The notes beneath the pieces are model-generated. The model was given only the letters and a program-made list of their open reading frames with translations, did not search any database and had not been told where the DNA came from. Both the position numbers and the translations under genes were made by a program. This document shows, piece by piece, positions 1,744-64,000 of a stretch of 64,000 nucleotides of DNA (within the stretch, counting starts at the first letter, position 1; each line of letters starts with the position of its first letter). This stretch comes from an uncultured Solibacteraceae bacterium (GTDB lineage Bacteria; Acidobacteriota; Terriglobia; Bryobacterales; Bryobacteraceae). Location of the stretch: assembly GCA_964457555.1 (NCBI GenBank), contig CAYWHA010000015.1, positions 7,834 to 71,833 on the forward strand. The letters run 5' to 3'.

Positions 1744-1744
1744 G

Positions 1745-10529: not shown

Positions 10530-10545
10530 GGAGGAGACCGCTCTG

Positions 10546-13464: not shown

Positions 13465-13565
13465 TTTCGACGTCCCCGGGACGGTTCTTTCAGCTCAGTT
13501 TAACACGATGGTTAGTTTAGTAAGTCGCGGATGTGTGTATGCTGGACAGCAGCCGATGGTCTTAA

Positions 13566-13949
13566 ATGGAGATGGCGGCGATGAACCGACGGTATTTCTT
13601 GTGTGGGGCGGCGTCGCTCGGCGCGGACCGGGCGATCGCCCAGGATGCGCGCAGGGCCTCGGCGCAAGAATCCGGGAGCAGGCGGCGGGTCGAGAAGTCC
13701 GCGACGGCAGCCATGGCTATGCAGCGCCGCGATTGGGAGCAGGGCATTTTCGCTCAGGCCATGTTCGAAGCAGACAACCAGGATTTCAAGGAGGTCTGGA
13801 AGTACCAGATTCAGATCCCTTGGGCTGCCATCCGCCTCAAGAACGGCAACACGCTGATCACTGGCGAGAGGGACATCCTTACACGTGAAGTCAATCCAGC
13901 GGAGGAAACGCGGGGAGATCGCCGTCAAGAGCGGCGCCCCGATTGCTAA
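13566..13949 (+). pseudogene. Possible chimeric gene remnant: Tat-like signal, hydrolase-like fragment and beta-propeller-like fragment
   Basis: 127-aa ORF. MNRRYFLCGAASLG is Tat-like. AMQRRDWEQGIFAQAMFEA looks like an (alpha/alpha)6 hydrolase fragment. It is joined directly to VWKYQIQIPWAAIRLKNGNTLITGE, which is propeller-blade-like. All three + frames are open here, so coding status is weak. Confidence 0.3.
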
Positions 13950-14031
13950 GAGGAAGGTCGAATGAAGGCGCAGTTCAGCCGCGGCCTATTTCACCGGGAG
14001 GCCCGATGCGCTGGCGAGCCGCAGTCGATTT

Positions 14032-14664: not shown

Positions 14665-14690
14665 AGCCTGTTTCCTTCCATTCCGCCTCT

Positions 14691-17705: not shown

Positions 17706-17893
17706 ACCGCCAAGCCCGACGTCTTCATCCTATGCAGAAAGCCTAGTCCTATATATGCGATTCGCACAACTTACGGTATGAGGAAAGACTGATGACAGTG
17801 GCAGGCGCATGCAATAGAATCAACCGCAATGCGAATCGGACTTGAATTGGACGAGTCGCTGTGAGTTTGTTTGGACCGCAAAGGAGAAAGCAG

Positions 17894-48427: not shown

Positions 48428-48445
<18 letters not shown>

Positions 48446-51211
48446 CCTCCGCGAGCTCCTGTTCAACGGCGCCGGGTATCCAATTAAACAGAACTGGTCG
48501 AGCGCAAACAACACCACCGACTCCACCCCGCTCGCCAGCGCCAAGCCTCTCTCTTTCAACCAAGGCGTCGTGTAATCGCTGATTCCCACCAGGTGGCTGC
48601 TCTGCGCCGGCGGGAACCCAAACTGCCCCGGCAATGCAATCGAGCCACGCACCTCGTCCAAATCGCGGTCGCCCGTGAAAGTGAAGTTTTCGGTTTTCAG
48701 GCAGGTCAGCGCCGCGGCGGTCCAAGCCGCGGTCGGATAGTTGACCAGCTTATTCAATGGCGTGTCGTTCGTATCCACCGGGTACAGCGATTCGAAGCGC
48801 GCGTTGGGGTATACGGCCTGCACGAAAGCCATGATCGCATTGGTGAATGCGCCGATCAGCGTGGGCAGGAACGCGCATTCATCCGGGAAGTCCGTGGGCG
48901 GCGCGTTTTGGCTCGGAACGATCCCCATCGGCCGTCCGTATGCCGTCTGAAACGCGCTCTTGGTATACGCGTCGTAGAATGGCATGCCCGCCGCCGATGC
49001 GTTGTACCACCACTGGACTTCCCCGAATTGCAGGTACGGAACCAGACCCGCGGCGCTCATGAGGTTTGCCATATCCAGGTAGACCTGTTGCCAGAACGCC
49101 GTGCTGGCCGGCGAGAAATTGGTCTGAAGCGATGGCGTATTGAGCAGCGCCGCCGTGCCGTCCGGGTAGCATTGTGCGATCCCCGTCGCTGGTTGCGGGT
49201 CGCCATCCTGAAGCTCCATGGAAAACGCCGCCGCCACGTCGATTCCGTACCCCTTCAGCGCCGCGAAGTAGCTCGAGTGCCAGTCACGCGCCGCCCGGTT
49301 GATGCGCGGCGTCGCCGTCAGGTCGGTGCGCCACCCCGCCGCCCACGCCATCGTCGAGAGGTCCCCGTCTACGCCCCCGGCCAGCGGCCCGCTCGCCACT
49401 GCCGTCAGGTGCTGGCTGCCGCCCGTATCCGGGACGACGGTCATCCCGTTTCCAGCCGTCCCCATGGTGCGCGATCGGATGGTCAACACCGCCCCCGCCG
49501 CGCTCGCCTGCACCGCGGTGGCGCCGGCGTTAACCGCGAGCGCCAGCGCGTTGGCCACGCTCGCCGCCGTGTCCGCCATCAAGCTCATGTGTTGAAACAG
49601 CGCTCCACCGACGTTGACCCCGGTGTACAGGCCGAAATCCGGCGTACCCGCGAGCGTCACGGTAGCCGTAGCGTACTGCTGGCCGGGACACGCCAGTTCG
49701 TAAAACCACATCGCGCCGGCATAATGGTTCGCCCGCCCTTGGAAGCCGAGCTTGTCGATCAGCCAGGCGGTGCGCTCCGGTGCAAGGCAAATCGAGTGAT
49801 ACGTGTCCCAGTCCGTCGCCAGCGTCGTGCGCGGGGTGCTGGCGATGGTCGGCAGGTTCGCCGTCGGGTAGGCGATCTCGAAAAAGTCGAAATAAAAGAC
49901 GCCGATTCCGGTCTGCGCGGCCGTCACGGTATGCTGACCCGCGTTGAGATCGGCCACCTTGATCCGGACCAGCAAGTCCTCCACGTCGTCGAACGCCAGA
50001 TTCGCCGCGCTGGTCGCGCCGTCAATGGTAATGGAAATCGGCGCGCCGGCCCCGCCGCCGTTGTTGAACATGCGCGTTCCCAGGAACAGCGTGTGGCCTC
50101 CCGCCGCCGTGTAGGTGCACGACACGGACGATCCTGGCGTCTGCGTGGATCGAATCGACCCGCCCGAGTAGTTGCCCGTCACCGCCTCGTCCCACGCGCC
50201 CGAATAGACCACCAGGTTCGAAGAGTCTTCAGCGCGCCAGCTTCCAGGGCCCGCCACCTGATACGTAAGATTCGCTCCGGCCACCGTCCAGTTTGAGACC
50301 GTCACCTGGAATTCCGTTCGCGCGAAGTTGCCCGGCAGTTGATTGGGGGCCCAAGTCCACCTCATCATCCGTACCGAATTCGTCGGCACCTGGACCAGCG
50401 TCGTGAAAGCCGGCTCCACGTATCCCTGCAGATTGCCGAAATTAAGAGCAACATGCCACAGCGCCGTCGACGTTCCCCCGCTCATCGTCTGCGAGACCGG
50501 CTGCCAGATTTCGGTCTGCGCGCCGCTCGCGTTGCCGTAAACCCCCACACGGTTTCCGTTGGCGCCGGCTGCGGCCTTGTACTGCAGCGTAATCTGCGCG
50601 CCCGATGCCGTGGCCGTCATGCCGGTTGCGGCGGTGTTCGCGGCGATCGCGTTCGCCAGCAGTGTGGCCACGCCCTCCAGCGTGTCGTTGTAGTACATCA
50701 TGTGGGTCGCGTGCTGGCTCGATGGATCCACGCCGTCCGCCGCCGCCCAGGCCAGCTCCACGTAATCGTTGGCCGTTACCGCCCCCGTGAGTTCGAAAAT
50801 CGCCTGCGCCGGCGTCGGCGCCGCGCTCCCCGTCGCGGGCGTCGCGTTCGCAGCCAGCGGCACCTTGTACTCCAGCTCGACGCCGTCCGATCCCGTCGCC
50901 CAGATCCGCAGGTACGGCCAGTCTACCGTCGGCCACAGCGTGCAGTCCATCGCCATGCAATTCTGACGCGCCTCATCGTAGGAGAGCTGCAGGCCGCTCA
51001 GGTCGCCGTCCGGCAGGCAGCGCAGCGCCGGGTGTTCGAAAACGTTGTCGCGGCGCCACTCCACCACCGCCCAATCGAATTGCTGGCGAAACGACCCCGA
51101 TACCGTGAACCCGGTCGCGCTGGTCGCGCTCAAGGCCGCGGCCGCGCTCGGTTGATAGAAGTAGCACTGCAGGTCCCGGTTGGGTTGCAGCTTGGTGAGT
51201 TGTTCCGCCAT
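48428..51211 (-). CDS. Large distal tail protein (candidate fibre/receptor-binding or glycan-binding protein), no family recognised
   Basis: 927-aa ORF starting 7 nt after the stop of the host-specificity-like gene. It is the last gene of the module. Ala/Thr/Gly-rich beta-type composition, with a C-terminal part that looks enzyme-like (YLQFGEVQWWYNA...). Confidence 0.6.
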
Positions 51212-51218
51212 GTTGGTC

Positions 51219-54200
51219 TCACATCCGGATTAGTACGGTCAGATCGGCCCCCGGATACGTTTGCCCCACCGAGAGTATCGCTAGACTAACTTGCGACCCG
51301 GCTGCCAGCGGCGCCAGGGTATTGCCCGCCACGCTATTGGACACCAAAGTCGAGGTCCCGAAAGTCAGCGGACAGTATAGGTTCCCGTTGACGTTCAACT
51401 GAAGTTGTATCGGCGCATCGGCCGCAGTACCCAGCACCGCATAAATCTCGCGAACCGCGTGCGAGGCATCCATCACCAGGGCTGGAGCCGCGTATTGGTC
51501 CACAGCCAGAAAGCCATCCACCTGAATCGTGTACTGTCCGCCGGAGGTTGTGCGCAGTCCCAAATCGGTGGTGTGGGTCAGGGCAATGCTGCCCATTGGG
51601 CTGCTTCCCTTATTGTTGGTCACGACTAGCTCGGCGCTTGCCACGCGTACATCCGGCAGGATTACCGGGAAGCTCCAACTCCCACTGTAAGGACTTCCGA
51701 AAAACTCGGGTGGAAACGCCGCGATCGCGCTCGTGCTTGCCAAATGGTAAACCGGCTCCGGCCCCGCCGTGTGCGCGGTTGCCGGGCTTCCATCGCATCC
51801 TCGCGTCACCTGATAAGTGGCGCCGCCGTTGAGCGCGGCTGTCACGCACATGACTTCCTGGTCGATCTGCAAATAGCTGCCCTTCTGCCCCGGCCCCGGC
51901 AGGCTGAGGTTGATCGTGGTGTCCGCCACTCCCACCGCGTTCGCCAACGTGATTCCCGGCGTGCCCACCAGTTCGTTCCAGTAGTACAGCGTCAGCGTGG
52001 CTGAGGATATCGTGCGCGTGTTCGTCAGGTTGGGGAATGCCACGCCGCTCAACGCCACGGTTCCGCCCTGCGCGCCGTTCCCCAGCCCGAAGAGCGGCTG
52101 CGGCGGAATGGCGGCGTCCCCAAGCCCGCCAATCTGCCAGCGCGTGACCGTCGAAATACCCGGGTCGCATTCCACGTTGTTCACGTTCGCGGCGCGCCCC
52201 GTAATCTGCGCCACCTCGCCCAACCAGTTCGGAATCGCGAACTGCGCCGTCGCGCTGGTGGTCGTCGCGCCGGGATTCCATCCGCTCACCGCCGCCACGA
52301 AGTAGCTGGTGGCATCCGGCTCCACCACCCACGCCGGCGATACCGTTAATGTGGTCGCTGTGTTCGATCCGATCGTCGCTTCCTGTCCCGCCCCGGTCCC
52401 CCGCGTGATCCGCGCCGTCATGCCGCGATACGCATTGACCGTCATGTTGAGCGTTCCGTTGCCCACCGTGTTGGCGGAGTACAGGGTCGCCGCGATCTCC
52501 GGCAGCGCTTCCATGCGCCAGTAGAAATTCGCGTGATCGAAATTGGGGTCCGGCGGCGCGATGTTCAGCGGCGGAAGCCCCGGGTCGGTAAACTGCCCCG
52601 CCATCGCCTGACTGCTCGCAATCCGGTACAATGCCGACGGAGACGCGCCGCGATAGACGTTGAAAGCCGCCGTATTGAGATCGAAGCTCAGCCCCGTCAG
52701 CGTAACGGCGCTTCCACTGCTGGCGATCCCCGCCGTCACCAGGAACGATAGCGCGCTTTCATTCCCCGCCGAATCGAGCGCCGAAACCGCGTAGTACAGA
52801 ACCTGGCCGCTCGCCAGCGTTCCACCCGGCGCCACAGCCGCCGACAAGCTCACAAAGGGGATGCCCGGACCTGCCTCCGCGCTCGTGGCTGGTGGAACGT
52901 AGCTCACCGTGACGGTCACCTGGACCGAGCCGTCGCTGGTGACCGCGTCGGTCTCGGTCACCCCGAACTCAAGATTCCCATTCGCATCCACCACGCTGCC
53001 GATCAGCGGCCGCGGCACACCCATGCCCGCGTCGCTCTGCCGCCGCCCTCCCGTTGCCGAAGTGGGCTGCCCGTTGCTGTCTGCGTACCAGGCGTCGTCG
53101 TGAATCTGCGCCGTGATCGTCGTTACGCGATGGTTGATCCCCGGAGCGATTTTCAAAATACGGAACGGCTGCCGGGTGAATCCTTCTTTGAGGTACGTGA
53201 CCGTGATAATGTCGCCCGGCCGCACTCCGAACGATTTCACGCTCGTTTGGAATTCGATGTACGTGTTGCCCAGCACCGATTTGTTCAGGTTCAGTTGCAG
53301 GATACGCCCTGCCTGGTCGTTGTTCGGAAGCCCTATCGCGTTCAGGCTCGCCGTAATCTCTTGCCCGCAAAGCGTTACATCGTCCGCATCGGCTACCGTG
53401 TAGCTATCTTGCTGGTAATCGTTCAGCGAGTCCTGGAACTCCACGCTGAGACTGTTCGGAGTGTCCGCCATGCTGCGCGAATATACCCGCACGCTCGGTG
53501 CGCCGCTCGGCAGCCGCAGGATTCCGGTAACGCCCGTGCTGCCGTCTCCAAACTCGTAATTCGGCCATCCGCCGTTGAGCGGCTCCGTACTGTTCGACCA
53601 CGCCGGCTGCGTGGGCTGCTCGTTCGCGATGGTGTCCTCCACGCGAAGCTGCAGCAACCCCGCGCTGCTGTAAGTCAGTAGTAGCCGCGCCGTAATCCGC
53701 ACTCCGCGCGCCACGTCGCCCGCGCTCTTTCTCGTCTTCAGCGCCATGTTGCACTGGAACTTGGCGAGCGATATCGCATTGCCGTAGATGTCCACCGCAT
53801 CGATCTGCTGGTCGCAGTCCGCCGCCGCCGCCGCGAAGCTCGCAATGTCAATCTCCGCCGCGCTCCAGCCGAGCCGCCGCAAGATGTCCAGCAGAATCCA
53901 CGCCGGATTGTTGCTGAATTGCGCGCCCGTCTGCACGCCATTCGCGTCGTAAATCGCAATTGTCAGTCCCTGCGCCAGCACCTTGATTCTGGGCAGCGTC
54001 GTCCCGTTGTTGATCTGGTTTGGAACCACCACCGAAAGGTACGCCATGCTTCCGTACGGATCGCCGCCCGGAAAGTTCGCGTCGAACTGCCCCGTGCGTT
54101 GCCCCAGGCTCTGCACGTTGTACCACCCCGTAGCCGTCATGTTGGCGCCGGGGATGCCCAGCGGAATCTGCACCTCGTTAACCAGGACGATCAGCGGCGC

Positions 54201-55079
54201 CTGCATCTCGCCGATCCCCAACAGGACTTGCATCCTCGTCAGATTGCCGTCGTTGCGCGCAAAAACGATGGGGGGCGCGTACCACGCCGTCCCGTACACC
54301 ATCGGCACGAAATCGTTGTACAACGCCGTGTTCAGGCTGATCGCCGAGGCCTGCACGTTCCCCCCGGAGGGCCGCACCAGGATCGACGCCGGCACGAACT
54401 CCAGGCCCCCGAAATTTCCCCACATCCCTCGCGCCTGGCAGTCGCTCCGCGTGTATCCGCAGCTTGTGTACGCAACGCCGCCGTCCAGGTTCCCCGCGCC
54501 GCCCGCAATGTCCGCCGAGTACCCGCAGCGGTAGTACGAAGAGTATTGCCCGTTGCTTCCTCCGTCGATCGCTTCCGTGCGCTGTTCCGCGGTCGCCGGA
54601 AAATCCCACGGGCACGTCCGCTCGATCCGCACCTGCGGCAGCAGAACCCTCTGCAAGCTCATCCGGTTGATCGCCGTCAGCCGGATCGTCGCCTCCAGAA
54701 TCTCGTCCGGCGGATTGCAGATTCCCTGGAACAGCGCCGCGGTCGCGCTGTCAGCCGTCTGAGTCGCCAGATTGTAAATCAGAAAACTCACCGTTAGCCG
54801 CGCGCCCTTAAAACCGATGGATTGCTCCATCTCCGAAAAGTACGAATCCGCGTTCGCTAGCACAATCGAGATCTGCGATAGCCCGTCCACCCCTTGCGCC
54901 GAGGCCGGCTGCATTTCGAAAGCGCTGTGTTCGAGCACCCGCGCCGCATAGGCCTTGCCATTCACGGTGATTCCGTGCGTGCACCAGCTTTCCGTATGCC
55001 CGTTCGCCAGCGTGCAATCGAACAGTAGAAGCGGCGCATCCGTGATCGCCTGCTCCGTCAGACTATAGATGGTTGACAT
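51219..55079 (-). CDS. Tail tip/host-specificity protein: DUF2163 plus BR0599-like hub N-terminus fused to a lambda-J/RcGTA-g15-like central region and FN3-like repeats
   Basis: N-terminus LLLFDCTLANGHTESWCTHGITVNGKAYAARV plus a Cys cluster (RTCPWDF, YYRCGY, YTSCGYTRSDCQARG). The centre, NNPAWILLDILRRLGWSAAEIDIASFAAAAADCD...KFQCNMAL, is typical of Phage-tail_3/J-like proteins. 1286 aa. Confidence 0.65.
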   Translation of the reverse strand: MSTIYSLTEQAITDAPLLLFDCTLANGHTESWCTHGITVNGKAYAARVLEHSAFEMQPASAQGVDGLSQISIVLANADSYFSEMEQSIGFKGARLTVSFLIYNLATQTADSATAALFQGICNPPDEILEATIRLTAINRMSLQRVLLPQVRIERTCPWDFPATAEQRTEAIDGGSNGQYSSYYRCGYSADIAGGAGNLDGGVAYTSCGYTRSDCQARGMWGNFGGLEFVPASILVRPSGGNVQASAISLNTALYNDFVPMVYGTAWYAPPIVFARNDGNLTRMQVLLGIGEMQAPLIVLVNEVQIPLGIPGANMTATGWYNVQSLGQRTGQFDANFPGGDPYGSMAYLSVVVPNQINNGTTLPRIKVLAQGLTIAIYDANGVQTGAQFSNNPAWILLDILRRLGWSAAEIDIASFAAAAADCDQQIDAVDIYGNAISLAKFQCNMALKTRKSAGDVARGVRITARLLLTYSSAGLLQLRVEDTIANEQPTQPAWSNSTEPLNGGWPNYEFGDGSTGVTGILRLPSGAPSVRVYSRSMADTPNSLSVEFQDSLNDYQQDSYTVADADDVTLCGQEITASLNAIGLPNNDQAGRILQLNLNKSVLGNTYIEFQTSVKSFGVRPGDIITVTYLKEGFTRQPFRILKIAPGINHRVTTITAQIHDDAWYADSNGQPTSATGGRRQSDAGMGVPRPLIGSVVDANGNLEFGVTETDAVTSDGSVQVTVTVSYVPPATSAEAGPGIPFVSLSAAVAPGGTLASGQVLYYAVSALDSAGNESALSFLVTAGIASSGSAVTLTGLSFDLNTAAFNVYRGASPSALYRIASSQAMAGQFTDPGLPPLNIAPPDPNFDHANFYWRMEALPEIAATLYSANTVGNGTLNMTVNAYRGMTARITRGTGAGQEATIGSNTATTLTVSPAWVVEPDATSYFVAAVSGWNPGATTTSATAQFAIPNWLGEVAQITGRAANVNNVECDPGISTVTRWQIGGLGDAAIPPQPLFGLGNGAQGGTVALSGVAFPNLTNTRTISSATLTLYYWNELVGTPGITLANAVGVADTTINLSLPGPGQKGSYLQIDQEVMCVTAALNGGATYQVTRGCDGSPATAHTAGPEPVYHLASTSAIAAFPPEFFGSPYSGSWSFPVILPDVRVASAELVVTNNKGSSPMGSIALTHTTDLGLRTTSGGQYTIQVDGFLAVDQYAAPALVMDASHAVREIYAVLGTAADAPIQLQLNVNGNLYCPLTFGTSTLVSNSVAGNTLAPLAAGSQVSLAILSVGQTYPGADLTVLIRM

Positions 55080-55845
55080 AGATAATGTTCACCGTGCACG
55101 AATGGCGGTTTACGCCCGTGGTCGTGACTGCCAGTTGGTCGTCCCTCAGACGCGCGTTCTGATAGACTCCGCCGCTGGTGCTCGCCTGGTACACGGACGC
55201 CCCCGCCTGCGGTTCCGCTTGCATCCCGTATACCTGCACCTGAGCGGCGGCCGGAATTTGTAGCCCGAAACAAATCTCGGCCGCCGCCGCGTCTCCGCTC
55301 CCAACGGAGACGAACCTGTTCCATTGCGTTTGAACTGCTTGGCTCGCTTGGCCGCTCCCCAACAGCATCGTGACCGTCGTAGGCGCGGCTGCCCGCAGAT
55401 AGACGCTCAGGCAGTATTTGTATCCGCCCGGCGCCGTGAGCGTTTGCGAGATCGTCTGCGGCGCCGCGCCTCCATTCGTCAAACTCCACGCTCCCGTTCC
55501 GCCGGTCGGGTCCGCAATCCCGCTGGTGATCGAAAGCTGGGGATCGCGCGCCCAGGCCGCCTGCCCCGGCTCCTCGCTCCATGCCAGCAAATTCGCCCCC
55601 GGGTCCAGGAACGTGAACCCGTTCAGCGTCCCTTGCGCCGACGCGAAGAACTGCTCCAGCGCCGTTAGCTCCGCGTCCGACAGACCCGTGTAGCTCAACG
55701 CCCAATCCGTCGTCGATCCCGCCGCGTCCGCCAGCTTGATCGAGCTTCCGTCCAACGCGGCGTTGATCGCCGTGCGCGCGCGCCGTTCGGTCCGGATCGG
55801 AAACTGGCTCAGCGCGCCCGTTCCAAGTTGTGGATACGTCAGCAT
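55063..55845 (-). CDS. DUF2460-like distal tail protein paralog B (260 aa)
   Basis: MLTYPQLGTGALSQFP...LSDAELTALEQFFASAQGTLNGFTFLDP matches the FP...FF..RxG...F.F.DP pattern of TIGR02217/DUF2460 (RcGTA g12-type). It carries an extra C-terminal beta-rich domain and overlaps its neighbours by 7 and 17 nt. Confidence 0.55.
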   Translation of the reverse strand: MLTYPQLGTGALSQFPIRTERRARTAINAALDGSSIKLADAAGSTTDWALSYTGLSDAELTALEQFFASAQGTLNGFTFLDPGANLLAWSEEPGQAAWARDPQLSITSGIADPTGGTGAWSLTNGGAAPQTISQTLTAPGGYKYCLSVYLRAAAPTTVTMLLGSGQASQAVQTQWNRFVSVGSGDAAAAEICFGLQIPAAAQVQVYGMQAEPQAGASVYQASTSGGVYQNARLRDDQLAVTTTGVNRHSCTVNIIYVNHL

Positions 55846-56207
55846 GACGATCCTCGGTTCTCCATCACCCTCAATACCGTTGCGCCGTTCATCTCTCCGC
55901 TGGCCGTGGTTGGCAGCGTGTCCGTTTCCAGGCTGCAGCTTGGATAAACCGTACCGTCCCAGGGATCGGTGAATGCGAAGTTCCCAAACGCTCCCTGGTT
56001 GTCCTCGAAGAACTGCTCGATGGCCGCCATTTCGCCTTCGTCCAGTTGGCTAAGCGGGATCTCCCATCCGTGCAGCGGGCCGGCGCAGTCCTGGTAGCGT
56101 TGCTCCGTGCCGTCCAGGAAGCGTAACGCCTGGTTCTGATAGCGCACTTTCCGCATCGCCGGATACTGCATCGCGGCATTGGTTTTCAATTTGGGGAAGG
56201 TCGCCAT
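55839..56207 (-). CDS. DUF2460-like distal tail protein paralog A (122 aa)
   Basis: MATFPKLKTNAAMQYP...LDEGEMAAIEQFFEDNQGAFGNFAFTDP aligns by eye with the N-terminal 85 aa of 55063..55845. Confidence 0.55.
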   Translation of the reverse strand: MATFPKLKTNAAMQYPAMRKVRYQNQALRFLDGTEQRYQDCAGPLHGWEIPLSQLDEGEMAAIEQFFEDNQGAFGNFAFTDPWDGTVYPSCSLETDTLPTTASGEMNGATVLRVMENRGSSC

Positions 56208-56209
56208 GG

Positions 56210-56875
56210 CTATAGGTCGTTGACCACATCGTTGATTGAATTGGAATTGAGCATTGCGTTCTTTACCGCCGCTGCGATGTCCGCGCTATGGTCCATGAAC
56301 CATCGCGCATCGAGTGTCTGGCCGTTCGCCGTGGTTTGCGCCGGCCCCGCCACCGCTCCCGCCCCGCTCGAAACGCTGCCGGCCGACCCTCCCGCGCCCG
56401 TCGAAGATCCGCCCAGCGCCCTTGCCGTTCCCATTTGGTCGTAGCTGACGTTGCTCAACGTCCCGCCGCTATCGGCCGCCTGAAAATCGAGTGACGGCGG
56501 CATGACGTACTTAGTCAGTGGCGCGGGTGACTCGGATCCCCCGCCGCTGAATAACCCGATCAACCCCCCAATCAACGGAATCAGACCGAGGCCGCTCTCC
56601 AGAACGGTCTTCGCCACTGAACCCGCCGTCGCTCCGCCCCCGCTGTTGCTTGTCTTCGACATAGCCTCGGCTTCGGTCCTTGCCGGCCGCGGCAGCGTCG
56701 ATGGCGCCACCATGTCTGCTCCGGCCTCGCCTGCGCCGCTCGATTGCGATGCCGTCTCCGCCAGCAAGGCCGCCAGTTCTTCGGTCCCGGCCTTCGCCGC
56801 CAACGCATCGGTCCCTTCGCCGCCCGCAGCCTCTATGAAACTATCGAGTAACTTCTCTTGTATGGTCTTGGCCAT
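56210..56875 (-). CDS. Short tape-measure-like protein (221 aa, Gly/Ala/Ser-rich with a central hydrophobic segment)
   Basis: Sits in the tape-measure position directly after the G/GT genes. Helical N-terminus, hydrophobic GLGLIPLIGGLIGLFSGGG, low-complexity remainder. The assignment rests on synteny only. Confidence 0.45.
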   Translation of the reverse strand: MAKTIQEKLLDSFIEAAGGEGTDALAAKAGTEELAALLAETASQSSGAGEAGADMVAPSTLPRPARTEAEAMSKTSNSGGGATAGSVAKTVLESGLGLIPLIGGLIGLFSGGGSESPAPLTKYVMPPSLDFQAADSGGTLSNVSYDQMGTARALGGSSTGAGGSAGSVSSGAGAVAGPAQTTANGQTLDARWFMDHSADIAAAVKNAMLNSNSINDVVNDL

Positions 56876-57556
56876 TTCTTGTTTCCGTCGAAAGCTCGTT
56901 TTCCAGGATCGCGAACGCCTCCACTTGCCGGGCGCTCAACTCCGCGAAGCCCGTCCCTCCGACCCGCCGCCGCACCAGAAACTCCTCCACCAGCGTCAGG
57001 CTGTCTCCCGTGACATACGATTTTGGACAGGATGTGAGCGAGGCGCCCCTCCTCGCCCACACCAGCGGCGCGCCCGTCCCCTCCGGGTGCGCCATCCATC
57101 CGCATCGCCGCTTCTGTTCCAGACCGGATCTCCGGCAGGCGTCGCACTTCCAACCGGCCTGGTTGGAAAACTGAAAGTGGAAGGCGACAATTAGTTTTTT
57201 CGTTCCGCCTCGTCTAGCCCCGTCTCCGCCCGAACCGCGGCCAGCGCTTCTCGAAACAGATCCTCCGGCCCGGCGCCCGCCAGCGACTCCGGCGTGGCTG
57301 CCGCTCCGTCCACCTCCAAACCCACAACCTCCCGTAAACCCCAAGTCACGTAAAGCCGGTCGATCTCCTTCTGCAGCAGCGCCGCATCCATTTTTTCGCC
57401 CGCGCCGCCCCCCGCCTCCAGAAACTCCATCCGCCGCATCAGTTCGCGCACCTGCCGCATCAGATCCACCCGCCGCGCAAACGACATCTTCGCCACCGTG
57501 TACCGCACCCCCGCCGCAACCGCCGATTCCACCATCCTCACGCTCTCGTAAGTCAT
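56841..57556 (-). CDS. Tail assembly chaperone GT-like fusion made by -1 programmed frameshift (about 238 aa)
   Basis: The -1 frame is open from the heptamer (57194-57200) to the stop at 56841 and has protein-like sequence (LIVAFHFQFSNQAGWKCDACRR...). It has no start codon for its first 33 codons. Span length is 716 nt, which equals 3n-1 as expected for a -1 shift. Confidence 0.5.
57191..57556 (-). CDS. Tail assembly chaperone, G-like (121 aa)
   Basis: Small acidic helical protein between the tube candidate and the tape-measure-like gene. It ends ...EAERKN-TAA, with the slippery heptamer in its last codons. Confidence 0.6.
   Translation of the reverse strand: MTYESVRMVESAVAAGVRYTVAKMSFARRVDLMRQVRELMRRMEFLEAGGGAGEKMDAALLQKEIDRLYVTWGLREVVGLEVDGAAATPESLAGAGPEDLFREALAAVRAETGLDEAERKN
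57194..57200 (-). promoter_or_regulatory. -1 ribosomal frameshift slippery heptamer A_AAA_AAC
   Basis: Minus-strand zero frame reads GAA CGA AAA AAC TAA. This gives X_XXY_YYZ = A_AAA_AAC in the correct phase, immediately before the stop codon. Confidence 0.55.
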
Positions 57557-57569
57557 AGCCCCATCCCTC

Positions 57570-57698
57570 TTGACGCGGAGACGCGGACGCGAAGCGCCAC
57601 AAATCCACCCTGCATTCCCGAACCTCTTATAGAGGTTTTCTCCGCGTCCCCGCGTCTCCGCGTCAAAGCCTTTCTCTGCTTACTCTCCGCGTCAAAGC
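57570..57698 (-). repeat. Inverted plus direct repeat complex built on TTGACGCGGAG, between the tube and chaperone genes
   Basis: Left arm TTGACGCGGAGACGCGGACGCG (57570-57591) pairs with right arm CGCGTCCCCGCGTCTCCGCGTCAA (57643-57666). A central 7-bp hairpin AACCTCT-TAT-AGAGGTT sits at 57621-57637. TCTCCGCGTCAAAGC is repeated at 57655-57669 and 57684-57698. Confidence 0.85.
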
Positions 57699-57703
57699 TT
57701 GCC

Positions 57704-58912
57704 CTACCCGAACGCCACCGTGATCTCGTTGTCCACCGTCCCCTGCGCCCGCGCCCCCCGGAACTTCCACTGCAGCCGGTTCTGCCCGTCCTCGAATTCC
57801 GGAACCTCCGGGATCACGCTGTTCATGTTGACCCCCATCATCAGCCCTTGCGCTTGCCCCAACTGGAACATCACGCTGATGGGCGATTGCTGCCGCGCCG
57901 CCTGGTAAAGCCCGATGGTCGCGCTGTCGTCCATGCTGTAGAGTTCGAAAGCCGCCGTCACCGTGCGCCCCCCGGGCATGATCGCCTGCGGCAGGTTCGT
58001 CCCGAATTCCTTGGCCCGCGCGGCCAACCCGTTCTTCAGCGTTACCGTCCCGCCGGTGATCGTGAAGAACTGCGAGGGCGCGCCCAGCCACGCCTCGCCC
58101 ATGTTTCCGGGCACAATCGAGTAGTCGAACGCGCCCAGCGCCGGCTCCGCCGGGAAGTTCGTCAATGTCCCTTCCCCGCTGCTGAAGCTGCCACTGTCCA
58201 GTAAATCCTGCGCGATCCCGCTGAAGCGGAATTCCTGATAATCCCCGTTCAACAGGATGTCCATCTGGTCGATAGCCCCGCCGCACAGCAGTCTCTGCAC
58301 CGCCGTCGCCGGCGACCAGTAGTCGTAGACGCTCACACTCGGCAGTTCCGTCGCCGGTACGTAAGTCACCGTCGGCGCCACCGCCGTGCCCGCCCCCGGC
58401 AGAGCCGTAAACGGCGCGTTCAATTGCACCGCGGTCGCACTCGCAATCGCCGTCACGAACCGGATCTCGCCGCCGCAACTGACCGCTTGCCCCGCCGTCA
58501 GACCGTGCGCCGCCTGGAACACCAGGCTCCCGGCTGCCGTGCTCGAAGCCGCCGTTCCGCCCGCGAATTCCAGCGGCGTGCCGCCCAGCGCCGCCTGGAA
58601 CAGCGGTCCGTACGCCGGCCCCGGCAGCGTATCGGGCGAGGGCGCGTTGCCCGAAGGCCCGGCCGCCGCCTGCTGCCAGCTCGTCAGAAAGGTTCGAAGC
58701 TCGAAGCTGGTCCGCCTCCTGCCGCCCGCCGGCAGTCCCGGAAATGTCCGGCTGCCGGTCTTGTCCTTCCGCGTGGTAACTTCCAGTTGCTGCTCCACCG
58801 CCAGCTTCAAGGCGGGAATCCGGTTCGCCGAGGTGACCGCCGATACGTTGCCGTAGGCGCTCTCCAATGCCGTGTAGAATCGGTTTGCGTTAGACGAAAT
58901 GTACGAGGACAT
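57704..58912 (-). CDS. Major tail (tube) protein candidate, 402 aa
   Basis: Located after the connector genes and before the chaperones. Beta-rich, Ala/Gly/Thr-rich sequence. Its start lies 2 nt after the upstream stop. Assignment by synteny. Confidence 0.5.
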   Translation of the reverse strand: MSSYISSNANRFYTALESAYGNVSAVTSANRIPALKLAVEQQLEVTTRKDKTGSRTFPGLPAGGRRRTSFELRTFLTSWQQAAAGPSGNAPSPDTLPGPAYGPLFQAALGGTPLEFAGGTAASSTAAGSLVFQAAHGLTAGQAVSCGGEIRFVTAIASATAVQLNAPFTALPGAGTAVAPTVTYVPATELPSVSVYDYWSPATAVQRLLCGGAIDQMDILLNGDYQEFRFSGIAQDLLDSGSFSSGEGTLTNFPAEPALGAFDYSIVPGNMGEAWLGAPSQFFTITGGTVTLKNGLAARAKEFGTNLPQAIMPGGRTVTAAFELYSMDDSATIGLYQAARQQSPISVMFQLGQAQGLMMGVNMNSVIPEVPEFEDGQNRLQWKFRGARAQGTVDNEITVAFG

Positions 58913-58913
58913 G

Positions 58914-59411
58914 TTAGTTGGTGCTCACTCCTATCTCGAGGGCGATCTTCGCCGTCTGTATGAAATTCCTGCCGCCATGTTTCACCGCCGCGAACGATAC
59001 CTCGTATCCGCCTGCGTAAAACATCCCGTTGCCCCAATCCCCCCGGCTCGCGCTCAACGTCTCCGTCACCGCGTCCGTATAGAGTTCCAGGGCGTCTTGC
59101 AGACCCTCCAGCCGGTCGTGCGAGTGCCGCACCTCCACCGTCATCTGGGCCGAGCCGGAGAAGCTCCGGGACTTCTCCTTCAAGGCGTTCACCAACTTCT
59201 CGCAATACACGTTGACCGCCGGATAGGTGACCGTTTCGCTGCGCTCCATCAGGTCCGGCGCCACGTTTTGCGCGCGCACCTGCGCCGTGTTCAGCGCCGC
59301 CGGCGCGCTGTCCGCCGCCGAAAGCGCCGCCAGCGTCGCATTGGCCCCCGCCGGCGCGACGATCAGTTGAATAATCCGGTCGCTGATCGCGCTCCCTATC
59401 TTCTGTGTCAT
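58914..59411 (-). CDS. Head-tail joining/tail terminator-like small structural protein (165 aa)
   Basis: ORF 58914..59588 trimmed to ATG 59411, which overlaps the upstream stop as TAATG. Assignment by position between the coat and tube genes. Confidence 0.45.
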   Translation of the reverse strand: MTQKIGSAISDRIIQLIVAPAGANATLAALSAADSAPAALNTAQVRAQNVAPDLMERSETVTYPAVNVYCEKLVNALKEKSRSFSGSAQMTVEVRHSHDRLEGLQDALELYTDAVTETLSASRGDWGNGMFYAGGYEVSFAAVKHGGRNFIQTAKIALEIGVSTN

Positions 59412-60181
59412 TAGCCCCTCCGCAGCACTCTTGGAACTGGCTTGATGTAGTTGGGAGCTTGCCCTTGTCCCGCCCGCCGGCCGGTCGTCGCCAGCGTCCC
59501 GGGTTGGGTCCAGGTCTGTGCGGTTCCGATCGGCGTCCCATTCTGCCGGAACATCGAATCGGGGCCGCCGCCCACATACACGTTCCATCCCTTCGCGTTA
59601 TTCGGTGGATCCACCGGTTGTACCAGCAGCGTGCTGGCGACCGTCGAGACAGTAGCCGGCAAGGCGCTCGCCCCCTCCTCGCCGGCCTGGTTGGTCCACG
59701 CCATCGTCGCGTAGTAGGTCGCGTCCGGTAGCGCGGTCGGCGCGCCCACTACCGCCGTCACGGTGGGCATCGCCGCTCTGGGGATCGGATCGAGCGCCAC
59801 TCCCGCCCCAATTTGAACCAGCTTGTCGTAAGCCCAGCTCGCCATCGAATGGAATTGGTCCCGCTTGCCCGCATACCGGTCGTTCAACTGGCTGTTGTAT
59901 GCGTCGGCGTACACCATCTCCAGCGCGCGGTAGCTATGCCAGAGCCGCAGCGCCGGCGTCACCACCACGCGGCTGACGCTCGGCTGCGGCGAAAGCCCGA
60001 ACTGGTCCGGATAACTCGTTCCCGTCAGCAGTACTTCGAGCCCCAGCGCCACTTCTTCCTGCGCCAGGGCCAGCTTTTGCGTCACGTCGATACTCTCGGC
60101 ATTGGCTACATCCAGCAGTTGCGAATCCTGCGCCGAAAGATCGTCCATGCTCGATACGAGACCGTCCGTGAACAGAGCCAT
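59411..60181 (-). CDS. Head-tail adaptor-like protein with a C-terminal beta-sandwich-like domain (256 aa)
   Basis: N-terminal helical region (LSAQDSQLLDVANAESIDVTQKLALAQEEVALGLEVLL) resembles gp6-type connector proteins. Assignment by position, low certainty. Confidence 0.45.
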   Translation of the reverse strand: MALFTDGLVSSMDDLSAQDSQLLDVANAESIDVTQKLALAQEEVALGLEVLLTGTSYPDQFGLSPQPSVSRVVVTPALRLWHSYRALEMVYADAYNSQLNDRYAGKRDQFHSMASWAYDKLVQIGAGVALDPIPRAAMPTVTAVVGAPTALPDATYYATMAWTNQAGEEGASALPATVSTVASTLLVQPVDPPNNAKGWNVYVGGGPDSMFRQNGTPIGTAQTWTQPGTLATTGRRAGQGQAPNYIKPVPRVLRRG

Positions 60182-60185
60182 GTCC

Positions 60186-60518
60186 TTACGCCGAGTCCTT
60201 CAGGGCGTCCGCGACCCCCTTCAACTTGTTGAGCTCGGCCGTCGTCAGCACCGAGAACTGCACCCGCGCCGCCGCCGCTGCCTGATCGGCTGCCTGTTTC
60301 GCCACCGCCACCGACGCGCGGAATGCAGTCGCGGCCGCGCTAGTGGCCAGACTGGCTTCCCCTTCCACAATCATCTTCGCCGCGATGTCGCGCGTGACCT
60401 CCGTCAGCACTCCCGCCTTGCCGCCCTCGGACGTCTCCAAACTCACGATCACCGGATAAGGATCCGCGATGTTCGCTTCCGTCGTTCGTATCTTCTGGTA
60501 ATAACTTGTCAGATCCAT
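60186..60518 (-). CDS. Small structural/hypothetical protein (110 aa)
   Basis: ORF 60186..60566 trimmed to ATG 60518 with GGAGAG (60526-60531) 7 nt upstream. The longer TTG-start version would translate through the hairpin repeat. Confidence 0.5.
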   Translation of the reverse strand: MDLTSYYQKIRTTEANIADPYPVIVSLETSEGGKAGVLTEVTRDIAAKMIVEGEASLATSAAATAFRASVAVAKQAADQAAAAARVQFSVLTTAELNKLKGVADALKDSA

Positions 60519-60540
60519 CTTCTTTCTCTCCTTTTTTAGT

Positions 60541-60646
60541 CGAGGGGACAGACGAATCTGTCCCAAGGCGCCGCCGCTGCGCGAGGGGACAGACGAATCT
60601 GTCCCAAGGCGCCGCTGTTGCGCCGCGTGGACAGATCCGTCTGTCC
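60541..60646 (-). repeat. Two 34-bp direct repeats, each carrying an 8-bp-stem hairpin, plus a third related hairpin
   Basis: CGAGGGGACAGACGAATCTGTCCCAAGGCGCCGC occurs at 60541-60574 and 60582-60615. Hairpins lie at 60545-60564 and 60586-60605 (mRNA sense GGGACAGA-UUCG-UCUGUCCC) and at 60629-60646 (GGACAGA-N4-TCTGTCC). Confidence 0.9.
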
Positions 60647-60700
60647 CCGGTCTGCCCCGGTCTGCCCCGGTCTGCCCCGGTCTGTCCCCGGTCTGCCCCC
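60645..60700 (-). repeat. Tandem 10-bp repeat CCCCGGTCTG x5 (sense strand GGGGCAGACC), abutting the coat gene stop
   Basis: Copies at 60645-54, 60655-64, 60665-74 and 60675-84, then a 1-nt insertion, then 60686-95, followed by CCCCC (60696-60700). This gives six G4+ tracts on the coding strand. Confidence 0.95.
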
Positions 60701-61620
60701 TACGTATTCACCTGCACGCCCGAAGTGTTTCTCAACACCGCGCACCCGTACAGCACGTCCACCGTGAACTGCTGAGCCAGCGTATCCGGCTGGTAGCTCA
60801 TCACCACGCGCATCCCGAAGTTGCCCAGCTCCGCGTACTCCGCGATCGCGCCGGTCCCCGGCAGTGGCTGCGGCAGCCGTCGGATCACCAGGCCAAGCGC
60901 GTCCTTCGTGAACGCCATGTTGTGGGTCGTCACCACCGCCGGCGGCGTGCCCGTCTGTTGCACAAACTGCGAGCGGAACACGTAGAAGTCCTTGTACTTC
61001 CCAACCGTGCCGTCGATCAGCGCGTTCAAGCCCGCGGCCCCCGCCGTCTGGAACTCCTCGAACAGCGGAATCTGCCGCCATGCCGAGTAAGTCGCGGCGT
61101 TGACTACGATGTACTTCCTCTCGCTCGGTGGCACCATCGCTTGGAACAGCGTGGTTTCCGCCGCGTCGATGGTCGCTTCCGTGATCGCCGTGCCCGCCGT
61201 CCCCACCACCGGGTTCGAGTTGAAGCCCGCGTACAGGCTCAGCAGGTCGGTTTCGATCTTTTGCGCGATCGCCGCCACCGATGGCTGCATGTACAGCTTC
61301 AGCAGGTCCGGCACTGCCAGCACCCGGATTACGTCCGGTATCTGGAACGTCGCTTCCGCGTGCGTATTCAGCACGATCGCCGCGTTGTTCAGAGGCGGGT
61401 TCTGCGTCAGTACCGCCCCGCCGTTGTTCAGAATGTTGTTCGCCACCATCGTTGGCGGTATCGGGATGTTGACCGTGTCACCGGCATTCGCCAGCACCGG
61501 CTCGTAGTCGCGATTCACAAGGTTCCCCATCACGAGGTTCCCCACCAGTACCGGCAAAGCGTCCGCCGCCACCAGCTTCACAATCGCGCTTGCGACGTTT
61601 GTTGAGGTAATTGCTGCCAT
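60700..61620 (-). CDS. Major capsid protein, P22-coat-like (HK97 fold) family
   Basis: 306 aa. The pattern NLVNRDYEPVLANAGDTVNIPIP..., the size, and the position after a scaffold-like gene fit the P22 coat protein family as recalled. AGGAGAA is upstream of the ATG. Confidence 0.7.
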   Translation of the reverse strand: MAAITSTNVASAIVKLVAADALPVLVGNLVMGNLVNRDYEPVLANAGDTVNIPIPPTMVANNILNNGGAVLTQNPPLNNAAIVLNTHAEATFQIPDVIRVLAVPDLLKLYMQPSVAAIAQKIETDLLSLYAGFNSNPVVGTAGTAITEATIDAAETTLFQAMVPPSERKYIVVNAATYSAWRQIPLFEEFQTAGAAGLNALIDGTVGKYKDFYVFRSQFVQQTGTPPAVVTTHNMAFTKDALGLVIRRLPQPLPGTGAIAEYAELGNFGMRVVMSYQPDTLAQQFTVDVLYGCAVLRNTSGVQVNT

Positions 61621-61675
61621 TCGTTCTCCTGTCTTTTCTTTCTGCCGGGCCTTTCGGGCCCGTACTGTTTCGTTT

Positions 61676-62272
61676 TCACAGCCCCCGTAGGGTCTGCGAC
61701 GCCACGCGCACGATTTCCTCTCGTACCCGCCGCATCTCTTCCGCGCTCATGCCTGGCCGGATTTGGTCGAGAGACACCGTCTCCCGCCCCTCTGCCGGCG
61801 CCTTCAGGGTCGCCGTCATTCCGGTCCCCCCCGCGATCCGAGCCGGTAGAAACTCCGGGTTCTCCGCGACGAAGGCCGACAGATATTCCTTCATACTCAT
61901 CTGTCCGCTTTCCCCGCGAGCTACCAGCCGCCCGTCTTCCGTCCGCTCGATTTCGTCCTTGACCGCCTTGAACGCAAGGTCGATCTTAGCTACTCCCAGC
62001 CGGTGCAGCTCCGCTCGTACCATCGAGCCGCGCTCCGCTTCCTCCGCCAGCTTCCGGCTGTGCTTGTTCTCCGCCACCAGTTCGTTCAGCCTGCGCTCCA
62101 GTTGTTCCCGCCGCTTCCGCTCGTCCTCCAGCTCCGCCTTGTGGGCCGGTTCGCTCTTGGCCTGCTCGTTGCTGGCGTATTCCTGAATTGCTTGCCGCAC
62201 GATAGCCTGCACGTCTATTCCTTCCATAACCCTCCTGTCAGTGGGGCGGGCCTCCTGGCCTGCCTTCTTCAA
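61676..62272 (-). CDS. Scaffolding protein candidate
   Basis: Highly charged coiled-coil region (AHKAELEDERKRREQLERRLNELVAENKHSRKLAEEAERG), lying between the portal and coat genes. Start is uncertain: TTG 62272 or ATG 62227. Confidence 0.55.
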   Translation of the reverse strand: MKKAGQEARPTDRRVMEGIDVQAIVRQAIQEYASNEQAKSEPAHKAELEDERKRREQLERRLNELVAENKHSRKLAEEAERGSMVRAELHRLGVAKIDLAFKAVKDEIERTEDGRLVARGESGQMSMKEYLSAFVAENPEFLPARIAGGTGMTATLKAPAEGRETVSLDQIRPGMSAEEMRRVREEIVRVASQTLRGL

Positions 62273-62304
62273 CTAATCCTTTCCCGGATAGCGATCCATC
62301 CGAA

Positions 62305-62374
62305 CCGCGAACCTCCGTTCCGAGCCGCGAACGTCCGTTCCGAGCCGCGAACGTCCGTTCCGAGCCGCGAACGT
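62305..62374 (-). repeat. Tandem 20-bp repeat CCGCGAACGTCCGTTCCGAG x3.5 between the portal and scaffold genes
   Basis: Copies at 62305-24 (one mismatch), 62325-44 and 62345-64, plus a half copy at 62365-74. Confidence 0.95.
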
Positions 62375-62409
62375 AAGAGAGCGGTTCTTACTGTCTCCCC
62401 GGTCTGCCC

Positions 62410-63792
62410 CTACTCCCCGTACTTCATCCCGTCAATCTCTTCCGCCACCTGGTTCTTAACTTCCTGCCGCGCGTCGCACAAGTACTTGAACGCCAAATTC
62501 TTGAACACCTGCTTCTTCAACGTCTCCGACCCGATCCCCATATCCAGCAGCTTCTTTGCGTCGTCCAACTCCCCGCTGTAATCGTCGATATCGAATTCGT
62601 CCAGGCCCGATACGTCAATCGACACTCCGTCCTGCCGCGCCGCCGCAATCGCCCGCAGCACCTGCTTCATGCTTTCCTTCACCGTGTCTCCATACGCCCG
62701 CAGCACCTCCTGCGTCACGCTGAAGTCCCTCTGCTTGCTGATGCCGGAGATCCGCAAGTCCCCTCCGCTCGGCGTCCCGGCTTGGTTCATCAGGTAACAC
62801 ACCCGGTAGATTTCGTCCTTGAGCTGCACCAGGTTGTCCGCCGCAATCTGATAAACCTTCCCCTCCGGCTCCGTCCACCCGAACCGGTCCTGCGGCCCCA
62901 GTTGGATGTAGTACGACTCCCCTACAATCTGGTTCCATTCCCGCTCCGAATAAACCACCGGAGTCGCGAACAGCCCCATCGTCAGCGCCCACGCCAGCGC
63001 GTTCGATTTATTGAAATGCTCCAGTTGCAGCAGCGCCGCCTTGTTCGTCAGCCACAGCCCGTCCGATACCTGCATGCGGAACAAGGGCACGCGCCGCAAC
63101 GCCGCCAGCCCGTGCTGCCCTTCGTCCACTAACTCCACCGCGCTTGTCTCACCCGCCTTCCGGTAGATCTGGAAGTTCTCGCGGTCGTAGTAAATCCACC
63201 GCGTTTCCCTCCCCCATCGCGCGTCCGTCACCTTCGATTGCTGCAGGCACGTCGTCCGGATTACCGCCCATTCCAGGCTTCCCGTCTCGTCGTGGTTCCA
63301 GTTGATGACCTCCTCCGGACTGTAGTCCACCAGGTACGCCCGCGACCGCCCCGATGCGTCCTCTTCCGCCCGCGTCATCGCCGCCCCGTTCGCCCGCGGA
63401 AAATCCACCACCGTGTACGAGCAGCCGTAGATCATCGTCTGCACGAACCTCTGCCGGAAAAACTCACTTAGGTTCGTGTCCTTCAAATCGCAATTCGCCG
63501 ACAGCACGCTGAAGTAGTCCTTCGCCGCCGCGTCGTTTCCTTCAATCGCCACCGCCGGCGCCCGCCGGATCAGCGTCGCCGCGTACCAGTCCACGATCGA
63601 CCCGATGTAGTTCTCGTAAAATACCCGGTTCAGCCGCTCCTGGTAAATCTCGCCCGGCTCCTTGTGCCGCCGCACCAGGTAATCCGTCGCGTTTGCGCGC
63701 AGCCGTTCGCCGCCCGCGTAAAGGTCCCTGTACTGCTTCCACATCGCCTTGCGCGCGATGTATTCCGGATGTTCGCGATTGATGTTTTGCAT
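62410..63792 (-). CDS. Portal protein (DUF4055-like portal family)
   Basis: ORF 62410..63963 trimmed to ATG 63792, 7 nt after the terminase stop. 460 aa. N-terminus WKQYRDLYAGGERLRANATDYL...YQERLNRVFYENYIGSIVDWY resembles DUF4055 portals. Position fits. Confidence 0.65.
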   Translation of the reverse strand: MQNINREHPEYIARKAMWKQYRDLYAGGERLRANATDYLVRRHKEPGEIYQERLNRVFYENYIGSIVDWYAATLIRRAPAVAIEGNDAAAKDYFSVLSANCDLKDTNLSEFFRQRFVQTMIYGCSYTVVDFPRANGAAMTRAEEDASGRSRAYLVDYSPEEVINWNHDETGSLEWAVIRTTCLQQSKVTDARWGRETRWIYYDRENFQIYRKAGETSAVELVDEGQHGLAALRRVPLFRMQVSDGLWLTNKAALLQLEHFNKSNALAWALTMGLFATPVVYSEREWNQIVGESYYIQLGPQDRFGWTEPEGKVYQIAADNLVQLKDEIYRVCYLMNQAGTPSGGDLRISGISKQRDFSVTQEVLRAYGDTVKESMKQVLRAIAAARQDGVSIDVSGLDEFDIDDYSGELDDAKKLLDMGIGSETLKKQVFKNLAFKYLCDARQEVKNQVAEEIDGMKYGE

Positions 63793-63799
63793 TTGGTTC

Positions 63800-64000
63800 T
63801 CAGTTGAGCAGCCTGACTGTCCGCTCCCCGATGCTTTGCCTTCTGTTGTATTGGTCCCATACCAGATACCCCAGCGCGTCCGATAAGTGCGTCCGCAGCC
63901 GGTCCCGGTCTTTGTCGATGATGCATGAGTCTGTCTTGTATGACACCTGCTCGAAGTCCGCAATCAGTTCCTTGCACTTGCCATCTACTAACAGCCTGAT
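63800..64000 (-). CDS. Terminase large subunit, C-terminal fragment (5' part beyond window)
   Basis: Not in the ORF track (no start in window). Manual translation gives IRLLVDGKCKELIADFEQVSYKTDSCIIDKDRDRLRTHLSDALGYLVWDQYNRRQSIGERTVRLLN-stop. The ...L..D.E......IDK.....TH.SDA.GY pattern is typical of terminase nuclease C-termini. Confidence 0.55.
   Translation of the reverse strand: MRLLVDGKCKELIADFEQVSYKTDSCIIDKDRDRLRTHLSDALGYLVWDQYNRRQSIGERTVRLLN

Follow-up and report, generated by a model that had tools for sequence, protein, structure and literature searches.

The 64,000-nt stretch of DNA of an uncultured Solibacteraceae bacterium analyzed here (contig CAYWHA010000015.1; called the window, at its full length) carries on its minus strand two overlapping open reading frames (ORFs), named G and T in this work, which are most probably joined by a programmed -1 ribosomal frameshift of the phage G/GT tail-assembly-chaperone type (we put the probability of this reading at about 0.88). 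Such a frameshift had been proposed in the initial annotation of the window, and the comparative analysis supports the proposal: the in-phase slippery heptamer is present in 262 of the 264 distinct homologous loci, the -1-frame ORF is conserved and has no conserved start of its own, and a covarying RNA pseudoknot, which had gone unnoticed, was found downstream of the heptamer.

The proposed frameshift site and its conservation

The elements of the site are as follows.

57191..57556, minus strand: G, the upstream ORF of 121 aa, with an ATG start; the product of standard decoding and the proposed tail assembly chaperone
57194..57200, minus strand: slippery heptamer A_AAA_AAC, in the X_XXY_YYZ phase of G, two codons ahead of the stop
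57189..57193, minus strand: spacer UAAUU of 5 nt, which holds the G stop codon UAA (57193-57191)
56841..57200, minus strand: T, the -1-frame extension (KK, 117 codons and TAG), with four invariant cysteines and no conserved start
56210..56875, minus strand: downstream ORF of 221 aa with an isoelectric point (pI) of 4.3, the proposed tape measure protein; glycine-rich, with one hydrophobic segment

On the minus strand G ends with GAA CGA AAA AAC TAA, and the -1 frame reads AAA AAA CTA ATT GTC... from the heptamer on and stays open for 117 codons up to a TAG at 56843-56841. The first ATG, GTG or TTG within this extension is an ATG at codon 34, and the ATG of the 221-aa ORF (56875) sits 35 nt inside the end of T. 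The initial annotation had given the end of the G ORF, the position and phase of the heptamer and the course of the -1 frame to 56841 correctly to the base; its statements that the extension has no ATG in its first 33 codons and overlaps the tape-measure-like gene agree with the start at codon 34 and the 35-nt overlap, respectively. The predicted G protein (13.3 kDa, pI 4.99) is small and acidic, as tail assembly chaperones usually are, and the predicted GT fusion has 238 aa and 26.3 kDa.

It should be stressed that the heptamer and the open frame, taken alone, are unremarkable against chance. The sequence AAAAAAC occurs twice in the 64-kb window, with 4.2 occurrences expected, and the -1 frame is open for 255 codons in DNA of 63% G+C, which includes 136 Gly/Arg-rich off-frame codons upstream of the site, across G. 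Long open alternative frames of this kind are common and the heptamer is not over-represented, and both facts would suit a coincidence, i.e., an open -1 frame produced by G+C-rich DNA, or a degraded gene with a fixed frameshift mutation. Third codon positions have a G+C content of 0.78 in the G frame before the site and of 0.77 in the -1 frame after it, which argues against such explanations and is weak evidence for a switch of the coding frame at this point. What sets the site far above chance is its conservation in homologous loci, together with a local drop in synonymous variation.

A search with the conceptual GT fusion as query gave 124 proteins, nearly all of them from Acidobacteria/Terriglobia metagenomes. 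A T-only alignment, used as query against one genome per GTDB species, found relatives in 192 GTDB species, the best 80 of these 192 matches being all Bryobacterales, Solibacteraceae or Terriglobia, with many of the contigs of megabase scale; in IMG/VR, 424 relatives were found. After three extra scans with divergent queries the set comprised 361 loci with 264 distinct 151-nt segments, and all 264 distinct loci come from Bryobacterales/Solibacteraceae (Acidobacteriota) genomes or from IMG/VR contigs.

Across these loci, whose amino-acid sequences diverge by up to 62%, the heptamer reads AAAAAAC in 258 cases and AAAAAAT (AAAAAAU) in four, and the two-frame layout is kept along with it; the site thus passes the check on homologous clusters that the initial annotation had proposed. 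The stop codon of G follows the heptamer immediately in 227 loci, after one codon in 36 and after 30 codons in one, and more than 90 G homologs end with (E/Q)RKN followed by the stop or by one further codon. In the T frame, protein conservation begins exactly at the shift site (KKL(I/L)VAFHFQFSNQAGW.CD.CR..GLE.KRRCGW; motif at the site KKLIVAFHFQFSNQAGW.CD.C...), and from there on the -1-frame ORF is conserved, with a length of 108-126 codons. T shows 50-93% identity among relatives, and G and all neighbouring genes are conserved too. Judged from these conservation data, the coincidence or decay of a gene can be regarded as refuted in practice.

Two loci depart from the pattern and weigh against the frameshift. 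L164 (positions 1060-1075 of a 1.5-kb JGI contig) has A4 in place of A6 and thus a permanent in-frame G-T fusion (EERK-LIVAFHF), and the IMG/VR contig L353 has a disrupted heptamer, AACAAAC; both may be errors, dead copies or real variants. Several full-length "fusion" homologs from ENA assemblies (P0002-P0011, P0044, P0119) were considered as natural in-frame fusions and rejected, because their long Gly/Arg-rich stretches are G read off-frame, through assembly indels or gene calls crossing frames.

The same set of loci bears on a reading without any recoding, in which T would be a separate small protein translated from its internal ATG or from a start within the end of G. The source contig is annotated in this manner: T appears there only as an 84-aa ORF beginning at the internal ATG (P0121; window 56841-57095). 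G is called with two different starts, giving 114 or 121 aa. In other records T is annotated only if a chance start is present, and it then often has eight spurious N-terminal residues. Moreover, in 79 of 259 loci the T frame has an ATG or GTG eight codons before the heptamer, and in these lineages T could be synthesized independently, which tells against a frameshift as its sole source. This start is, however, best seen as a by-product of the Glu/Gln-Cys codons of G (E/Q-C-G-L), and it is therefore that gene callers annotate T in those lineages. In 89 of the 259 loci the stretch from the closest upstream -1-frame stop to the heptamer has no ATG, GTG or TTG; in 40 of the loci this stop lies at most five codons upstream of the heptamer (e.g., L003, GGC UGA ACG AAA AAA CUG); and the first start downstream of the site falls anywhere from codon 1 to codon 103 and is not conserved. 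The residues of T that are invariant in the alignment of 121 sequences include C19, C22, C33 and C58 (window 57146-57027), and three of these four cysteines, together with the most strongly conserved part of T, precede the sole ATG of the T extension in the window. Separate initiation would also leave the invariant in-phase heptamer, the stop of G within one codon of it and the pseudoknot unexplained. On this comparative evidence it cannot account for the conserved layout of T, and we consider it highly improbable; T is presumably reached through the frameshift only.

The RNA structure downstream of the heptamer

Synonymous-site diversity, expressed as observed/expected over 146 distinct G+T codon alignments, is 1.0-1.2 across G, falls to 0.5-0.8 from codon -5 to codon +25, and then returns to 1.0-1.35. 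A second drop is confined to the last 12 codons of T, at the overlap with the next gene. In nearly all loci the start of the 221-aa gene falls into the final 8-12 codons of T, with an overlap of 23, 32 or 35 nt, and the suppressed variation at this overlap suggests that translation of the tape-measure-like gene is coupled to that of T or G. Within the first trough, Val is encoded by GUC in 81 of 81 cases and Cys by UGC in 81 of 81, and most of the trough codons end with A or U, which is atypical of this genome. The trough matches the stretch of the predicted pseudoknot, from the heptamer to about 80 nt downstream. The helices of this structure (stem 1 being derived from an RNAalifold consensus) are listed below, with positions numbered from the start of the heptamer.

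57178..57188, minus strand: stem 1, 5' arm, GUCGCCUUCCA, positions 13-23
57141..57152, minus strand: stem 1, 3' arm, UGGAAG-U-GCGAC, positions 49-60, with U55 bulged
57154..57162, minus strand: stem 2, 5' arm, CCAGGCCGG, positions 39-47, within the loop of stem 1
57119..57127, minus strand: stem 2, 3' arm, CCGGUCUGG, positions 74-82

The 11 bp of stem 1, the 9 bp of stem 2 and loops of 15, 1 and 13 nt give an H-type topology. The structure starts 5 nt past the heptamer, the usual spacer between a heptamer and its structure being 5-9 nt. Pairing was found in 98.8% of the cells of stem 1 and, for both helices, in 98.3% of the cells, compared with 31-48% when the partners were slid by 1-3 columns (81 ungapped sequences). 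Double changes occur at four pairs of the 81-sequence alignment, and the observed covariation score was reached by none of 500 shuffles.

The same was seen at individual pairs in 260 distinct sequences. Pair 42-79 is GC in 197, AU in 34 and GU in seven of them, and its covariation proceeds via two synonymous changes (Gln CAG to CAA and Leu CUG to UUG); pair 47-74 is GC in 174 and CG in 42; and pair 18-54 is CG in 165, AU in 10, GC in 10, GU in 11, UA in four and UG in three. On a neighbour-joining tree built from the protein sequence outside the structure, the compensated states need at least 12 (42-79), at least 7 (47-74) and at least 14 (18-54) changes, and they therefore do not reflect one inherited event. 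Even where the amino acid changes, as at codon 17 of T (Lys, Arg or Glu; AAG, AGG, GAG), the pairing is kept via G-U. Rfam gave no match at E values up to 1 in 56700-57800. Taken together, the alignments indicate a conserved and previously undescribed H-type pseudoknot, which would be expected to raise the efficiency of frameshifting.

The pseudoknot also bears on transcriptional slippage, in which the polymerase would add one A in the A6 run and the resulting T-frame mRNAs would be translated into a product ...ERKKLIV... with no ribosomal slip. The site is indeed a run of six A residues, an extra A yields the same frame, and sequence alone cannot separate the two processes. Against polymerase slippage it can be said that efficient slippage by bacterial polymerases generally needs runs of about 8-9, and the A6 run, already short, is never longer in the 264 loci. 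The run is followed in every case by C or U, which the X_XXY_YYZ rule requires, though this base is also fixed by the Leu codon. Finally, a covarying pseudoknot located 5 nt downstream is a hallmark of ribosomal stimulators and has no role for a polymerase. We thus regard transcriptional slippage as improbable.

In having an A-rich heptamer, a 5-nt spacer and structured RNA downstream, the site resembles the signals of Escherichia coli dnaX and of insertion sequence (IS) elements, as well as stimulatory H-type pseudoknots like the one of coronavirus IBV (PMC5009743, PMC3458567). It differs from dnaX, where A_AAA_AAG is combined with an upstream Shine-Dalgarno sequence and a hairpin, whereas here a predicted two-helix pseudoknot is embedded in conserved coding sequence.

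Two other candidate elements of the signal were rejected. The local hairpin UUCCAACC/GGUUGGAA, which RNAfold prefers for the window sequence, was dismissed as a conserved element because its pairs persist at only 59-96% and its formation competes with that of stem 1. The other, a GAGG lying 7 nt ahead of the heptamer that resembles a Shine-Dalgarno stimulator, lacks conservation among the loci.

A long and nearly perfect inverted repeat was also observed at 57570-57666 (minus strand), between the neighbouring 402-aa gene and G, and is predicted to fold into an approx. 97-nt hairpin (-59 to -66 kcal/mol, z = -5.1). It was rejected both as a part of the signal and as a conserved attenuator, most loci having a short spacer at this place. 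In about 25 related loci the place is taken by structured inserts of 100-390 nt, and the hairpin of the window looks like a lineage-specific palindromic insertion.

Proposed decoding and the proteins G and T

In the proposed mechanism, most ribosomes would make G (121 aa) and halt at the UAA right after the heptamer. A minority would slip by -1 on A_AAA_AAC, with tRNA-Lys re-pairing from AAA to AAA and tRNA-Asn from AAC to AAA, and would read on in the -1 frame to produce the 238-aa GT (...ERKN-LIVAFHFQFSNQAGWKCDAC...). The slip would be stimulated by the H-type pseudoknot, and the stop codon in the spacer could have an added effect. That ribosomes shift here, and at a rate at which G prevails, is what we infer from the signal, its phase and its conservation. 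By analogy with phage lambda, a coat of G and of the G part of GT would form on the 221-aa tape-measure-like protein, and the T part with its four invariant cysteines, which may bind zinc, would recruit the tail-tube protein.

The site had been described as a textbook one in the initial annotation, but A_AAA_AAC is the textbook heptamer of eukaryotic viruses, the bacterial classic being A_AAA_AAG (PMC5009743). Ribosomes of E. coli shift far less readily on A_AAA_AAC than on A_AAA_AAG (PMC5009743), which has to be counted against the proposed slip; a low shift efficiency is, at the same time, what a G/GT system needs. The same heptamer is used for the tail-chaperone (g-t) frameshift of the haloarchaeal virus HCTV-2 (PMC5009743), whose host, unlike the one considered here, is archaeal.

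The G/GT mechanism is that of lambda and has conserved counterparts in long-tailed dsDNA phages (PMC5009743, summarising Levin 1993; Xu, Hendrix and Duda 2004, 2013, 2014). The locus analyzed here shares with lambda the arrangement of two ORFs just upstream of the tape measure position, the -1 heptamer in the last codons of the first ORF, the small acidic G with a fusion about twice its size, and a layout that is kept among relatives despite sequence divergence. It differs in the heptamer (A_AAA_AAC here, G_GGA_AAG in lambda), in the lack of sequence similarity of G and T to any G or T family, in the conserved pseudoknot and the four invariant cysteines of T, and in being carried by an element of Acidobacteria that may be an incomplete phage. 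The lambda frameshift is not known to need such a downstream structure.

The identity of the proteins was addressed with sequence profiles and structural models, and several of the outcomes weigh against the assignment of G and T as tail chaperones. No family in Pfam, PHROGs or NCBIfam was matched by G, T or the 221-aa protein, and a scan of 28 alignment members at E values up to 1 gave no family match for G or T. The curated chaperone families (Pfam Phage_TAC_* and Phage_tail_T, and their PHROG and NCBIfam equivalents) were among those that G and T did not match. A profile of 49 G sequences found only chance matches to RNase HII among PDB sequences, and neither GT nor the 402-aa protein had a tblastn match among 50,697 phage records. 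The model of T alone has a mean pLDDT of 74, with values of 50-65 in the cysteine region, and Foldseek returned nothing for it below an E value of 4. The top Foldseek match of the G model in PDB, the HK97 tail assembly chaperone 2OB9, is a weak one (E 0.7; target-normalised TM 0.43-0.49).

The AlphaFold model of G has a pLDDT above 90 over residues 10-110. Its top match in BFVD is an uncharacterised Caudovirales protein (E 5e-9), and most of its named matches there are tail assembly chaperones (E 6e-3 to 0.3, probability 0.3-1.0), among them, at E 6e-3 to 0.2 and 8-14% identity, those of Bacillus phage 019DV002 and Gordonia phage Teatealatte and the "pre-tape measure frameshift protein G" of Xylella phage Sano. 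The HK97 chaperone and these BFVD models are thus the best structural matches of G, all of them weak, and G shows no sequence-profile relation to them. The modelled structure is plausibly chaperone-like in fold, and by sequence G and T appear to constitute a new family.

The cysteine pattern of T (W-x-C-D-x-C ... R-R-C-G-W ... C-P-K/R-S) is invariant in 121 homologs. These four cysteines, by themselves, suggest a zinc-binding module. One JGI homolog of T carries the automatic annotation of a Zn-ribbon protein.

Neighbouring genes and the 17-kb cluster

The G/T pair belongs to a cluster of head and tail genes, for which the following features are relevant.

57704..58912, minus strand: ORF of 402 aa upstream of G, proposed, by position only, as the major tail (tube) protein
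55063-55845: 260-aa protein with a DUF2460-like N-terminus and NCBIfam GTA_spike_fiber (E 2.8e-11)
48428-51211: 927-aa protein, the last gene of the cluster, with Pfam TIM-barrel_NCTSP (E 9e-19)
48428-64000 and beyond: extent of the cluster in the window (1687-18668 in locus L161), about 17 kb, with head and tail genes only

The initial annotation held that the frameshift fixes the identity of the neighbouring genes, and this was too strong. Their position does fit the canonical order, but the 402-aa protein matches only PHROG 290 ("minor tail protein", tail category; E 7e-9), with no match in Pfam, NCBIfam, PDB or INPHARED, and the 221-aa protein, encoded by the least conserved gene of the cluster, is unmatched. 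By position and by the parallel with the gene transfer agent (GTA) RcGTA, the 402-aa protein would be the tube and the 221-aa protein the tape measure.

The order of genes in the cluster (L161, source contig) begins with a 112-aa gene, TerL (Terminase_6N), the portal, a 183-aa gene, taken as the scaffold, and a P22-type capsid protein. After the capsid, L161 has connector-sized genes of 110, 256 and 165 aa, then the 402-aa gene, G/T and the 221-aa gene, and finally a 122-aa DUF2460 protein and proteins of 260, 1286 and 927 aa. The 1286-aa protein has Phage-tail_3 and is J/megatron-like. For the Pfam name TIM-barrel_NCTSP ("non-contractile tail sheath protein") of the last protein, no origin was traced in the literature searched. 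The structural genes are all conserved across loci, the capsid with a median identity of 81%.

Locus L161 shows the cluster between patatin-side genes and fumarase, where cellular genes come next on the fumarase side; neither the cluster nor the 1.7 kb on the patatin side showed an integrase, replication or lysis gene. At nine other loci that show flanks, cellular genes abut the cluster (e.g., asparagine synthase, a membrane glycosyltransferase-like protein and a sigma-54-type regulator, recognized by eye from translations), and these flanking genes differ among the few loci showing them. Dozens of IMG/VR entries are 16-17 kb long and end at about the start of TerL and the end of the 927-aa gene. 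In its gene content and boundaries the cluster resembles a gene transfer agent or a domesticated prophage remnant.

The RcGTA head-tail genes used for comparison are g10/g10.1, g11, g12 and g15. In RcGTA the g11 tape measure protein of 216 aa is followed by the DUF2460 distal-tail protein g12 and a 1304-aa megatron (PMC7296036), and here, similarly, the 221-aa gene is followed by DUF2460 and an approx. 1300-aa megatron-type protein with Phage-tail_3 (for RcGTA, see PMC7296036, PMC9765227). Further points of likeness are the GTA_spike_fiber domain in the 260-aa protein and the cluster of approx. 17 kb limited to head and tail genes. It differs from RcGTA in its P22-coat-like capsid, in the extra 927-aa TIM-barrel protein and in its phylum, and no equivalents of g13 and g14 of RcGTA were detected in the cluster. 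Genes g10/g10.1 of RcGTA are themselves a frameshift pair.

A broader reading would place the frameshift site in an undescribed GTA-like element (a domesticated phage) of soil Acidobacteria, whose tail assembly would be tuned by pseudoknot-stimulated frameshifting and a zinc-binding T. Its scope would be the Bryobacterales/Solibacteraceae, with representatives of 192 GTDB species and over 400 entries in IMG/VR, and the literature searched holds no description of the G/T family or of an acidobacterial gene transfer agent. We put this forward as a tentative and rather doubtful proposal.

Frameshifts of the G/GT kind are well known, and the presence of one here is expected biology; what is new is the sequence family, with an unusually well-supported pseudoknot as its probable stimulator and a four-cysteine T domain, in a phylum with poorly known phages. 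The result corrects the annotation of hundreds of acidobacterial genomes and viral contigs, in which T figures as a fragment of 84 aa or has a spurious N-terminus. It also provides a bacterial -1 stimulator (heptamer, 5-nt spacer and putative H-type pseudoknot) with strong comparative support that is absent from Rfam. Well-supported stimulatory structures appear to be uncommon at phage tail-chaperone sites, and for this reason the site is a good candidate for mechanistic study. Finally, the frameshift anchors the identification of genes in a phage-like cluster of structural genes only, which is common in abundant soil Acidobacteria.

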